The notes beneath the pieces were generated by a model. The model did not search any database, was not told the origin of the DNA, and was given only the letters and a program-made list of their open reading frames with translations. Source: a virus (Duplodnaviria > Heunggongvirae > Uroviricota > Caudoviricetes). Taken from it: a DNA stretch of 15,979 bases. This document shows positions 10,668 to 12,197 of this stretch, one piece after another (positions within the stretch are counted from its first letter, which is position 1; each line of letters starts with the position of its first letter). The stretch lies in the IMG/VR virus record IMGVR_UViG_2548876865_000009, positions 1-15,979 of that record; one strand, given 5' to 3'. The position numbers were made by a program, and so were the translations under genes.

Positions 10668-10789
10668 TGTCCGAAAATCTCGTCAGTACAGTAAACGCGC
10701 TGGTGGTGGTGAATACCGGTCTTTCAGCTTGCTGGCTTTTTTGACAAGAGTTATTGGTGTGTCACGTTAACCGGAAAAGGGAAAAAGAC

Positions 10790-10987
10790 ATGCTGAAACA
10801 GCAGGATATGACCGAAACCGCCAGAGTGGTGTTTAATGAATTAAGCGTCACTGAACCGGCGACAGTCGGGGAGATTGCGCAGAATACTTATCTTTCACGT
10901 GAACGCTGCCAGTTAATACTGACCCAGCTTGTTATGGCGGGGCTGGCAGACTATCAGTTCGGTTGTTACAGACGCCTTCAGTCCTGA
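10790..10987 (+). CDS. Small winged-helix-like DNA-binding protein, 65 aa
   Basis: ATG 10790 inside the track ORF 10754..10987; HTH-like segment ATVGEIAQNTYLSRERCQLILTQL; weak RBS; terminator overlaps the stop. Confidence 0.5.
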   Translation: MLKQQDMTETARVVFNELSVTEPATVGEIAQNTYLSRERCQLILTQLVMAGLADYQFGCYRRLQS

Positions 10988-10999
10988 AGGCTTTTTTAT
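10973..10999 (+). terminator. Rho-independent terminator
   Basis: Hairpin gccttcag-tcc-tgaaggc followed by ttttttattt. Confidence 0.75.
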
Positions 11000-11138
11000 T
11001 TGTGGTAAATGGGCGGCTGGTGGGTGTTAGGGGCACTCACCAGCCATCTGCTCATGCGTCCGGATCACAAGCAAACCTCAGGCCCATCTGCTTTGCGCAA
11101 AAGCAGAATGAGCCTATCAGAGACAGGCTTAATGATCC

Positions 11139-12197
11139 ATGCTTAATACTGTAAAAATATCCAGTTGTGAGTTAATCAACGCCGACTGCCTGGAATTTAT
11201 CCGGTCGTTACCCGAAAATTCTGTTGACCTGATAGTCACGGACCCGCCGTACTTTAAAGTGAAGCCTGAGGGCTGGGATAACCAGTGGAAGGGCGACGAT
11301 GATTACCTGAAGTGGCTGGACCAGTGTCTTGCGCAGTTCTGGCGGGTGCTGAAACCTGCCGGAAGTCTTTACCTGTTCTGTGGCCATCGCCTGGCATCTG
11401 ATATCGAAATCATGATGCGTGAACGCTTCAGTGTGCTGAACCATATTATCTGGGCGAAGCCGTCCGGACGCTGGAACGGGTGCAACAAGGAAAGCCTGCG
11501 GGCGTATTTTCCGGCAACAGAGCGCATTCTGTTCGCGGAACATTATCAGGGGCCGTATCGTCCGAAAGATGCCGGGTATGAGGCGAAGGGCAGGGCACTG
11601 AAACAGCATGTGATGGCCCCGCTGATTGCTTACTTTCGTGATGCGCGCGCTACCCTGGGGATAACGGCAAAACAGATTGTGGATGCCACAGGAAAGAAAA
11701 ACATGGTGTCGCACTGGTTCAGTGCCAGCCAGTGGCAGTTACCGAACGAGGATGATTACAGAAAACTTCAGGTGCTGTTTGCCCGGGTGGCAGAAGAGAA
11801 ACATCAGCGGGGTGAACTGGAAAAGCCACATCACCAACTGGTCAGCACATACAGTGAGCTGAACCGGCAGTATGCCAGCCTGCTGGAAGAGTACAAATCA
11901 CTGCGGCGTTATTTTTCCGTATCGGCAGCCGTTCCTTATACGGATGTCTGGACGCACAAGCCTGTGCAGTATTATCCGGGCAAACATCCCTGTGAAAAAC
12001 CGGCAGATATGTTGCGGCAAATGATCACCGCCAGCAGTCGTCCGGGTGACCTGGTTGCAGATTTCTTCATGGGGTCCGGTTCGACAGTCAAAGCAGCGAT
12101 GGCGCTGGGGCGTCGTGCAATTGGTGTCGAGCTGGAGGCTGAACGTTTTGAGCAGACCGCAATGGATGTACAGAATTTAATCAGAAAGAGAGAGTGA
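11139..12197 (+). CDS. DNA methyltransferase (N6-adenine/N4-cytosine family, beta-type motif order), 352 aa
   Basis: DPPY motif (VTDPPYF) near the N-terminus and FxGxG AdoMet motif (DFFMGSGST) near the C-terminus; no adjacent restriction endonuclease gene seen. Confidence 0.85.
   Translation: MLNTVKISSCELINADCLEFIRSLPENSVDLIVTDPPYFKVKPEGWDNQWKGDDDYLKWLDQCLAQFWRVLKPAGSLYLFCGHRLASDIEIMMRERFSVLNHIIWAKPSGRWNGCNKESLRAYFPATERILFAEHYQGPYRPKDAGYEAKGRALKQHVMAPLIAYFRDARATLGITAKQIVDATGKKNMVSHWFSASQWQLPNEDDYRKLQVLFARVAEEKHQRGELEKPHHQLVSTYSELNRQYASLLEEYKSLRRYFSVSAAVPYTDVWTHKPVQYYPGKHPCEKPADMLRQMITASSRPGDLVADFFMGSGSTVKAAMALGRRAIGVELEAERFEQTAMDVQNLIRKRE

Follow-up and report, generated by a model that had tools for sequence, protein, structure and literature searches.

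A conserved structured leader ahead of the M.EcoGII-type adenine methyltransferase gene in a phage late operon: a candidate cis-regulatory RNA

M.EcoGII has found wide use as a tool enzyme. M.EcoGI and M.EcoGII, from prophages of E. coli O104:H4 C227-11, methylate adenine without sequence specificity, and M.EcoGII is toxic on expression and stays silent during lysogeny (Murray et al. 2018, PMC5778455). Homologues in O111 STEC (~93% similar) are listed as 'nonspecific', with no methylation assigned to them (PMC6602927). Non-specific adenine methylases that are com-linked have also been described, namely Hin1523, Nma1821 and Hia5 (Drozdz et al. 2012, PMC3299994). It has yet to be worked out how a phage silences a lethal non-specific methylase and later turns on its production; for the lysogen, the papers simply record the enzyme as 'not expressed'. 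We have analysed a locus of this type in a 15,979-nucleotide stretch of DNA from a virus of the Caudoviricetes (IMG/VR record IMGVR_UViG_2548876865_000009, positions 1 to 15,979), referred to throughout as the window. The methylase gene is already known and very common, its module being present in 2430 of the 5426 complete E. coli genomes; what is new is the leader found in the spacer ahead of it, which comparative evidence strongly supports as a candidate for a new RNA motif. Genes are arranged in the order Q, small ORF, methylase and tRNAs, and the features of the locus are as follows, with the evidence for each in brackets.

9883..10578, plus strand: late antiterminator Q gene (Pfam Phage_antiter_Q, E = 3.7e-83)
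10640..10672, plus strand: first intrinsic terminator, directly after Q (11-bp perfect stem, then T-run)
10790..10987, plus strand: 65-aa small-protein gene (phrog_331, E = 1e-37)
10974..10999, plus strand: second intrinsic terminator (hairpin 10974-10991, then TTTTTTATTT)
11006..11138, plus strand: conserved structured leader of ~133 nt (conservation, covariation, fixed position)
11139..12197, plus strand: beta-class N6-adenine DNA methyltransferase gene (PF01555 match and M.EcoGI/M.EcoGII identity)
12238..12487, plus strand: tRNA cluster with CAU anticodon (Ile in RefSeq), Arg-UCG and Arg-UCU (ARAGORN, Rfam, RefSeq annotation of the O104:H4 homologue)

The region 3' of Q is part of the Q-dependent late operon, and the tRNA cluster forms the downstream boundary of the cassette. 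By its position the hairpin at 10640..10672 appears to be tR'-like. The small ORF has a terminator of its own, as the earlier note on this DNA had reported, which overlaps the end of the ORF and lies 10-20 nt ahead of the leader. Of 21 further lineages examined, most also have a stem and T-run directly before the leader element, with stem sequences that differ, and in phiKO2 an annotated late promoter and terminator are found in the equivalent position, immediately before the element and the gp52 methylase.

The 352-aa methyltransferase matches Pfam N6_N4_Mtase (PF01555) over residues 29-340, its score of 152.4 bits exceeding the cut-off of 26.7. DPPY occupies residues 35-38 (TDPPYF, 34-39) and FMGSG residues 310-314, motif IV thus preceding motif I in the beta order, which bears out the beta-type assignment made earlier from the DPPY and FxGxG motifs. 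Its description as an orphan enzyme downstream of Q also holds, with no adjacent restriction gene, Q upstream and the three tRNAs downstream. Both ends of the protein align with solved beta-class enzymes (M.RsrI, CcrM, M.MboIIA), and residues ~116-280 are unaligned to the nearest solved homologues. The long central insertion that had been remarked upon is present but is no peculiarity of this gene, as it is the target-recognition region normal for the whole M.EcoGII family. Identity to M.EcoGII (GenBank EGT69837.1) extends over 319 of 349 positions, the reference being taken from the supplementary material of PMC11551740 in machine-read form, with a few reading errors, while 316 of 348 positions are identical in the 349-aa protein of O104:H4 strain 2009EL-2050. 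The ~30 differences from M.EcoGII are located mostly in the C-terminal third. Judged by sequence, the enzyme is an ortholog of M.EcoGI/M.EcoGII and a close relative of a characterised enzyme; the earlier note was right in placing it among orphan beta-class enzymes but missed this ~91% identity. The window allele would be expected to methylate adenine in any sequence context, and the ~9% divergence could in principle alter its specificity. Given the identity to a non-specific enzyme, a search for its target motif, proposed earlier by methylation-sensitive sequencing, should find none, and that experiment has to be corrected in this respect. The anti-restriction role suggested for the enzyme is in line with the assumption made in the M.EcoGII papers (PMC5778455), and, by analogy with the homologues described (PMC5778455, PMC6602927), the window methylase may be silent during lysogeny.

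The leader region has a constant length of 147-154 nt and its nucleotide identity is above that of the flanking genes. Both sides have changed in 36 of its 42 pairs, the covariation score being 0.357 compared with 0.124 shuffled and at most 0.094 slid, and covariation is visible on a plain MAFFT alignment too. In 45 of the 61 sources searched, the leader model gave one full-length plus-strand match per source, ending at the start codon. A first scan of viral contigs, using a methylase alignment, returned near-identical E. coli-type loci only, while a second, using the Plesiomonas-type enzyme, reached divergent relatives. When scanning started from the motif, an M.EcoGII-family methylase was situated ~23 nt downstream in 119 of 120 matches; the leader is linked exclusively to the M.EcoGII-type methylase family. 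Two other candidates for the content of the spacer were rejected. A 45-aa ORF from ATG 11009, which overlaps the methylase start, comprises 3-7 codons or is frameshifted in most relatives, and the promoter scan gave no plus-strand sigma-70 promoter within the spacer, the conserved blocks having no consistent -10.

Two alternative folds of the leader, A and B, are distinguished by the following pairings on the plus strand.

11009-11014 with 11082-11087: fold A, helix P0
11015-11026 with 11034-11045: fold A, helix P1
11047-11056 with 11066-11075: fold A, helix P2
11087-11094 with 11100-11107: fold A, helix P3, the palindrome of the earlier note, arms 100% complementary
11111-11115 with 11125-11129: fold A, helix P4, the second hairpin of the earlier note
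11009-11014 with 11050-11055: fold B
11062-11067 with 11133-11138: fold B
11056-11059 with 11139-11142: fold B, AUG paired

The palindrome and the second hairpin (11111-11129) are thus both real, and the spacer does carry a dedicated structure, as had been proposed, but not in the form of isolated operators, since these hairpins are two of five covarying helices. The duplicated motif CCATCTGCT is likewise present, at 11044-11052 and 11084-11092 (one position from the second coordinate first given), and is lineage-specific and unconserved. P3 nearly always has a self-complementary 4-6-mer at its apex (GCGC, TGCA, GTGCAC, TCGA or GTAC), a self-complementarity beyond the need of an ordinary RNA hairpin loop. 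Highly conserved unpaired stretches of the leader are AAAUGGGCG, ACCAAGGCCCA and GAGCCUAYCA.

The minimum free energy fold predicted for the window is fold B (-65.3 kcal/mol, z = -6.26 compared with dinucleotide-preserving shuffles), in which 11056-11067 pairs with 11133-11142, corresponding to the methylase AUG and the nucleotides preceding it. The start codon has no Shine-Dalgarno sequence. Even when the alignment is fitted to fold A, 80-88% pairing is retained in the helices of fold B. The energies of the two folds are nearly equal in several E. coli-type leaders, and fold A is favoured by a wide margin in those of the N15-like and Vibrio types. Pairing of the AUG is retained in E. coli-type leaders and not in every lineage. 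As fold B is competitive only in E. coli-type leaders, a two-state start-codon switch is not universal.

In the reading that we favour, and consider reasonably probable, the locus is a hypermethylation cassette in which a late M.EcoGII-type enzyme is controlled by Q-dependent terminators and by a structured leader gating its translation. As a unit of the lambdoid-prophage late operon, it would supply methylase late in lytic growth, rendering progeny DNA resistant to many restriction systems, and, because the enzyme harms the host, layered control would keep it off in the lysogen. Two intrinsic terminators stand between Q/pR' and the methylase, through which only Q-modified RNA polymerase would read. 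The leader ends exactly at the start codon, and its most stable fold in the window is predicted to pair the AUG together with the preceding 12 nt, while the universally conserved five-helix fold (P0-P4) would free the AUG region. The PHROG-331 protein is a candidate trans-acting factor for this switch. The leader is probably a cis-acting element controlling when the toxic methylase is made. More tentatively, and as a proposal that we find plausible but somewhat short of probable, it may belong to a kind of cis-regulatory RNA not described before and specific to M.EcoGII-family methylases, a five-helix sensor licensing translation of a lethal enzyme in a state-dependent manner. The state sensed could be Q-modified fast transcription, binding of a PHROG-331 or Com-like protein, or a metabolite, and contacts between RNAs, or symmetric ones with protein, might be made through the self-complementary apex of P3. 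In Vibrio-type relatives, a Com-like zinc-ribbon ORF is inserted between leader and methylase (41 aa, CxxC...CxxC; phrog_6417 'translational regulator', E = 4e-5; Pfam Com 19.2 bits, below the cut-off of 22.9), which, by analogy with Mu com-mom and with the non-specific methylases linked to com (PMC3299994), may be taken as a precedent for extra translational control.

The small ORF was listed as 10754-10987 with a TTG start, the ATG at 10790 giving 65 aa; this ATG is the likely start, being favoured by divergent alleles that start at the same MxKQQDMTE. PHROG 331 is a phage protein family without assigned function, which the N15-type homologue also matches (E = 1.5e-27), and the protein is related to the N15/phiKO2 gp51 type (hhalign, probability 95%). 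Homologues are spread across Enterobacterales and the ORF is retained in alleles just 43-55% identical. Synteny of the gene with the methylase is seen in 23 of 24 species-level loci and also in phiKO2. Among the 113 element-bearing viral loci with enough upstream DNA it lies just upstream in 62 and is absent from that position in ~45%. It is thus a real and conserved gene and a frequent but not constant partner of the methylase, from E. coli phages to N15/phiKO2-like phages. The winged-helix fold that had been ascribed to its product fared less well, as the Pfam matches of this type all fall below their cut-offs (TrmB 18.1 bits against 25.6, MarR_2 14.7 against 27, DprA_WH 14.4 against 22.9, HTH_24 12.9 against 21.9). 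Profile searches against PDB sequences gave winged-helix matches that are all non-significant, for example PefI at E = 0.24. The AlphaFold2 model, of low confidence (pLDDT 68), has three core helices and no predicted beta wing, and in a Foldseek search against the PDB it had no match at E below 5. The product is possibly a minimal winged-helix protein, a weakly supported prediction, and regulation of the methylase by it is possible.

Were this protein a transcriptional regulator, it could bind P3 as a duplex-DNA operator and switch the methylase in the way of a controller, an explanation that we consider unlikely. The tight synteny of the two genes is consistent with it, as are the near-perfect or perfect inverted repeat of P3 with its self-complementary centre, a symmetry typical of sites for dimeric proteins, and the variation of the P3 arms among the three small-protein types. 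However, a duplex-DNA operator cannot account for the compensatory changes in P0, P1 and P2, and in many phages the element, P3 included, is kept although the small gene is not found directly ahead of it. In addition, the promoter scan gave no consensus promoter in the spacer, the DNA-binding fold is putative only, and the lack of a restriction gene and of an Xre-type HTH indicates that this is not a controller-protein system.

The preferred interpretation, a leader acting on the plus strand, also has to be weighed against function of the opposite strand. Folding z-scores are similar on the two strands and the fitted leader alignment contains 146 A-C mismatches versus 70 G-U pairs; neither folding energies nor G-U/A-C counts discriminate the folded strand. 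The element could be a minus-strand antisense sRNA gene with an extended -10-like start, its product neutralising leaky methylase mRNA as a type I antitoxin does, but we judge this to be quite unlikely. The minus strand does fold about equally well, GAGCCUAYCA reads on it as TGnTAnnCT with the T, A and final T invariant, as in an extended -10, and the C-A/A-C mismatches in P2 of enterobacterial copies become G-U pairs. An enzyme as toxic as that described in PMC5778455 would also make an antitoxin-like RNA useful. Nevertheless, no minus-strand terminator follows and the promoter scan gave no minus-strand promoter, the variable middle of the putative -10 covaries with the P4 3' strand, which points to a structural constraint, and the 3' end of the element is locked to the plus-strand start codon. 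Nor could an Hfq-bound sRNA be placed, the two Sakai regions inspected around listed EcOnc sites being without an intact cassette. Identification of the leader as an Hfq-bound sRNA of the E. coli O157 Sakai prophages (EcOnc list, PMC4104026) was dropped, as none of the Sakai prophage regions retrieved has the cassette intact, Sp10 and Sp3 having no cassette and Sp4 a 5' remnant only. HnrS (PMC13502914) is a different RNA from another part of the late region.

Assignment of the leader to a known RNA family was rejected, Rfam 15 giving no match in 10988-11138 at E up to 1 in a 3.7-kb search and, in a 231-nt search at E up to 10, matches of at most 16.5 bits to unrelated families, far under their gathering scores. 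The weak families seen at this permissive threshold were the Pseudomonas sRNA P26, microRNA precursors and REN-SRE. The leader would be a ligand-sensing riboswitch if it coupled methylase synthesis to cofactor supply, for example through S-adenosylmethionine or S-adenosylhomocysteine. Its multi-helix junction with conserved unpaired stretches, the alternative pairings that touch the start-codon region and its position before a SAM-dependent enzyme fit such a role, which we nevertheless rate as very unlikely, as no known Rfam riboswitch class was matched at E up to 10, some lineages have not kept the competing fold and nothing in the analysis points to any ligand.

That the hairpins are chance structures, or plain transcript-end or processing signals of no specific regulatory role, is already disfavoured and scarcely credible, for while terminator-like hairpins are common in the region (12 found versus 3.2 expected), the leader combines sequence conservation above that of the flanking genes, five covarying helices and a fixed distance to the start codon in distant phages, and the z-score of its fold together with the compensatory changes in those phages indicates more than chance.

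The cassette proposed here presents a testable architecture, consisting of two terminators expected to be Q-dependent, a leader that runs up to a start codon lacking a Shine-Dalgarno sequence, and a small protein as frequent partner. This architecture occurs in Stx-converting phages, in phages of Klebsiella, Yersinia and Vibrio, and in nearly half of the complete E. coli genomes.

Compared with known systems, the closest are M.EcoGI and M.EcoGII, which share ~91% full-length identity and the beta-class motif order with the window enzyme and occupy the same locus, between Q and the ileZ-argN-argO tRNAs of a lambdoid prophage with the same small ORF ahead. They differ in length (349 aa, compared with 352 aa here) and at ~30 positions, and the upstream leader and small gene are not described in the accessible parts of the published M.EcoGI/M.EcoGII work. 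Mu com-mom offers a functional analogy, in that a toxic late phage enzyme modifying adenines, with broad anti-restriction effect, is placed under layered control; mRNA structure covers the translation start in Mu, and in the window the predicted minimum free energy fold pairs the AUG. In contrast to Mu, the leader here is much larger, with five helices and its own conserved sequence, and the partner is a PHROG-331 protein rather than a zinc ribbon, no Com zinc-ribbon gene being present among the window ORFs and such a gene occurring only in the Vibrio-type relatives. Transcription differs as well: in Mu it requires the C protein together with Dam and OxyR, and for the window cassette it would depend on Q antitermination. 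Controller (C) proteins resemble this locus in the combination of a small putative DNA-binding protein and a palindrome beside a methyltransferase gene. Here, however, there is no restriction gene, the neighbours in the window being Q and tRNAs, which does not fit a controller system, no Xre-type HTH is present (no HTH_3 match), and the palindrome, which is part of a covarying structured element, follows the small gene. For the late-operon start of the linear plasmid-prophages N15, phiKO2 and PY54, the literature searched yielded nothing on late regulation in N15. The small gene is upstream of the annotated late promoter in these phages and outside the late transcript, whereas in the window it is between tR' and the second terminator, and N15-type leaders differ in their strong preference for fold A. 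The order of the small-protein homologue gp51, the element and the gp52 methylase is nonetheless the same as in the window, leader model R1 finding the element between the annotated terminator and gp52, which belongs to the same methylase family.

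The window represents the late-regulatory region of a Qin-like lambdoid prophage, in which the order 3' of the terminator after Q is small ORF, methyltransferase and tRNAs, followed by small RNAs, a sialate esterase gene and lysis genes:

8419-9522, rightward, DUF968 gene
9528-9896, rightward, rusA
9883-10578, rightward, antiterminator Q (Pfam Phage_antiter_Q, E = 3.7e-83)
10640-10672, strong terminator after Q (11-bp stem and T-run)
10790-10987, plus strand, small ORF of 65 aa
11006-11138, plus strand, leader between the small gene and the methylase
11139-12197, plus strand, M.EcoGII-type methyltransferase gene, 352 aa
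12238-12487, three tRNAs
12597-12805, plus strand, full-length STnc100-family RNA (176.7 bits)
12806-12865, minus strand, AgvB-family anti-GcvB small RNA (56.6 bits, just over the gathering score of 56)
13009-14958, NanS-p-type protein of 649 aa (DUF1737, SASA sialate O-acetylesterase and DUF6645 domains)

The convergent STnc100/AgvB pair 3' of the tRNAs corresponds to the 'convergent small RNAs at the moron site' layout of EHEC prophages (PMC4104026). The NanS-p-type gene sits where Stx phages have the gene following stx, and no toxin genes are present in the window. Only ~60 nt lie between the Q stop and the strong terminator. Transcription from a putative pR' to this terminator would yield a short RNA comparable to StxS or lambda 6S; Rfam gives only weak matches to 10579-10672 (isrK, STnc370 and Phe leader, E about 0.5-1). 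Positions 10560-12240 are matched in 2430 of 5426 complete E. coli genomes, the match spanning at least 80% of the query in 1903 of them, and also in Stx2a, Stx2c, Stx2d and Stx2e phages, phiP27 among them. Both genes, an M.EcoGII ortholog and a PHROG 331 gene, are known in kind, and their module is among the commonest of E. coli prophages.

All features listed by the earlier note (small ORF, terminator, beta methyltransferase, repeats, palindrome and hairpin) are found in the window, the sole coordinate error concerning the duplicated motif CCATCTGCT, which is present but has its second copy at 11084-11092. The methyltransferase, METHYLTRANSFERASE, is beta-class, with DPPY N-terminal to FxGxG and a PF01555 match of 152 bits. 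It is 91% identical (316/348) to a 349-aa protein at the same position in E. coli O104:H4 strain 2009EL-2050 and ~91% identical to M.EcoGII (EGT69837.1) as printed in the supplement of PMC11551740, the latter figure being approximate because the copy was machine-read with a few errors. By these alignments the gene is a new member of the well-characterised M.EcoGII family. The passages of PMC5778455 dealing with M.EcoGII and its close paralogue M.EcoGI, both carried by prophages of strain C227-11, describe adenine methylation in any context by enzymes that are silent in normal growth and deleterious upon expression; they name phage 1720a-02, the best match among phage records, as bearer of a very similar enzyme. 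For O111 STEC, homologues of about 93% similarity appear as 'nonspecific', and no methylation is assigned to them there (PMC6602927). Family membership predicts an enzyme without a defined target motif, and the search for one proposed earlier is expected to come up empty. The long central insertion described previously (residues about 116-280) is indeed unaligned to the closest homologues of solved structure (249-283 aa), but it is common to the whole M.EcoGII family rather than special to this gene, and the M.EcoGII papers regard it as an ordinary target-recognition region.

The small ORF matches PHROG 331, of unknown function (E = 1e-37), and, judging from its conservation, is a genuine gene. 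Its reading from the ATG at 10790 holds, as divergent alleles all begin MxKQQDMTE at the equivalent ATG, and the frame remains intact in alleles down to 43-55% identity. Homologues occur in Escherichia, Shigella, Salmonella, Klebsiella, Citrobacter and Buttiauxella. More distant phages, such as the N15-like phages of Klebsiella and phiKO2 (gp51), encode 75-97-aa proteins at the same position, to which the small ORF is homologous (hhalign probability 95%, E = 3.3e-8); the single one compared with the profiles, from locus L127, belongs to PHROG 331 as well. The winged-helix label is a hypothesis: Pfam matches (TrmB, MarR_2, DprA_WH, HTH_24) are all under cut-offs, profile searches against PDB sequences return winged-helix proteins at non-significant levels only (e.g. 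PefI, E = 0.24), and the low-confidence AlphaFold2 model (pLDDT 68) has three core helices, no predicted wing and no Foldseek match.

A scan of one genome per species placed the small gene in 24 loci, in 23 of which, behind several different Q types, an M.EcoGII-type methylase begins 147-154 nt past its stop. The remaining locus and E. coli strain 405 look like deletion derivatives (L021, 4980-5302, and L002, 3232-3518): one, a gut Enterobacteriaceae genome, has the small gene and leader (94 bits) without the methylase, and the other, strain 405, retains the small gene alone, fused to a truncated DUF3927 gene. The two genes do not always travel together. In an Stx2c phage (L003, 2778-4190) the methylase gene is 92% identical to that of the window but the small gene merely 62% (49% as protein), the switch occurring near window position 11007, so that the small gene and a leader-plus-methylase unit recombine as separate modules.

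Across the species-level loci the spacer between the two genes is constant in length, and blocks such as AATGGGCGGCTGGTGGGTGTT are near-invariant while the flanking proteins drop to 47-58% identity. Nucleotide identity to the window is 72-82% for the element, 54-76% for the small gene and, in non-recombinant comparisons only, 62-73% for the methylase gene. A scan with a Plesiomonas-type methylase added 69 divergent viral loci, in 50 of which the spacer profile matches directly upstream of the methylase. In the divergent loci the helices of a five-helix fold (fold A, P0-P4) are retained while the letters vary:

P0: AUGGGC/GCCCAU; GUGGGC/GCCCAC; AUGAGC/GCUCA
P1: for example GCUGGUGGGUG/CACCCGCCAGC versus GCUGCAGCAUG/CAUGCUGCAGC
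P2: UUCGCU/AGCGAA; UCAGCU/AGCUAA; AUGCCC/GGGCAU
P3: window 11087-11107, the palindrome of the earlier note
P4: its second hairpin

The palindrome and second hairpin were correctly observed but are fragments of a larger covarying leader. When 30 sequences are aligned with MAFFT alone, 18 of the 42 pairs are changed on both sides, and none of 500 shuffles attained such values. A covariance model of the leader (R1) finds one full-length match each, on the methylase strand and stopping at the start codon, in 45 of 61 sources searched. The R1-fitted alignment, which leans towards the model but agrees in direction with the MAFFT one, has two-sided changes in 36 of 42 pairs, standard pairs in 83% of cells and a covariation score of 0.357, against 0.124 when shuffled and at most 0.094 with partners slid. 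When only the conserved unpaired blocks (TGGGCG...AAGGCCCA...GAGCCTA) were searched for, an M.EcoGII-type methylase begins about 23 nt downstream in 119 of 120 viral stretches recovered; among the 113 whose upstream DNA is long enough, only 62 have the small gene. The element thus belongs to the methylase, which the small gene often accompanies but can be missing from. Neither Rfam 15, which holds no matching family, nor literature searches yielded a description of it. On this comparative evidence the leader is a conserved, covarying element specific to the M.EcoGII-type methylase family and a well-supported candidate for a new RNA motif. A decayed copy occurs in Sakai prophage Sp4 of E. coli O157 (L180, 2059-2191), where only the 5' third (P0 5' strand and P1) is left, followed by AT-rich DNA, an annotated AraC-family regulator in the methylase's place and the same downstream tRNA cluster.

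Folding energies are similar on both strands of the element, and A-C mismatches outnumber G-U pairs in the fitted alignment. An RNA hairpin loop does not require a self-complementary apex, yet that of P3 is nearly always a self-complementary 4-6-mer (GCGC, TGCA, TCGA, GTAC, GTGCAC, CTGCAG, GTCGAC, ATCGAT), so that P3 may serve for symmetric protein binding to DNA or for RNA-RNA contact. An antisense-RNA gene on the minus strand, where conserved GAGCCUAYCA reads TGnTAnnCT and resembles an extended -10 promoter, is a minor alternative, as the 3' end of the element keeps a fixed position at the start codon on the plus strand and the minus strand shows no obvious terminator. A spacer-encoded protein was rejected since the ORF opening at the conserved ATG (11009) is not itself conserved, indicating that spacer conservation is non-coding.

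Considered as a plus-strand leader, the element may act on translation. No Shine-Dalgarno sequence lies within range of the methylase start (UUAAUGAUCCAUG). The window leader has a minimum free energy of -65.3 kcal/mol (z = -6.26), and the predicted structure differs from the universal fold A: in this alternative, fold B, AUGGGC pairs with GCUCAU of the P2 5' strand and the freed P2 3' strand (GCGUCCGGAUCACAAGC) pairs with GCUUAAUGAUCCAUGC, burying the methylase AUG. Fold-B helices are 80-92% paired, with one-sided and some two-sided changes, although the alignment was fitted to fold A. In constrained folding the two lie within about 2.5 kcal/mol in several enterobacterial leaders, fold B is ahead by 12 kcal/mol in the window, and fold A is much more stable in N15-like and Vibrio-type leaders. 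From these lineage-dependent energetics we propose that in E. coli-type leaders a conformational switch would gate methylase translation, while universal fold A could serve for the binding of a protein, ligand or ribosome. The small protein is the obvious candidate trigger; its gene is missing just upstream in ~45% of those element-bearing viral loci whose upstream DNA is long enough, and the late transcript of phiKO2 does not include it.

Transcription appears to be controlled as well. A stem and T-run lie 10-20 nt ahead of the element in most of the 22 lineages examined, and the window has two terminator-like hairpins, which follow Q and the small gene respectively. These two hairpins before the methylase predict that it would be transcribed only by Q-modified polymerase, in agreement with the reported silence in lysogens. 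In phiKO2 a late promoter and a terminator, as annotated by the depositors, directly precede the element, so that the methylase there opens the late operon; the 130 nt between gp51 and the leader (L301, 1705-1831) also hold an annotated plasmid-partition site, and related Klebsiella-type loci have a similar GUUGG...CCAAC hairpin ahead of the terminator.

To the question of how phages control a lethal enzyme in wide use, the leader offers an answer that can be tested. In four loci whose nearest phage records are Vibrio phages (L154, 1362-1487; likewise L152, L156 and L172), a 41-aa CxxC...CxxC ORF lies between leader and methylase, the leader stopping at its AUG rather than at that of the methylase. 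The ORF has a match to phrog_6417, 'translational regulator' (E = 4e-5), and one under the cut-off, at 19.2 bits, to Pfam Com. This Com-like zinc-ribbon ORF shows that these enzymes attract dedicated translational control and recalls Mu com-mom and the com-linked non-specific methylases (PMC3299994). Compared with Mu mom, the control logic of the cassette in the window would be similar but the parts different.
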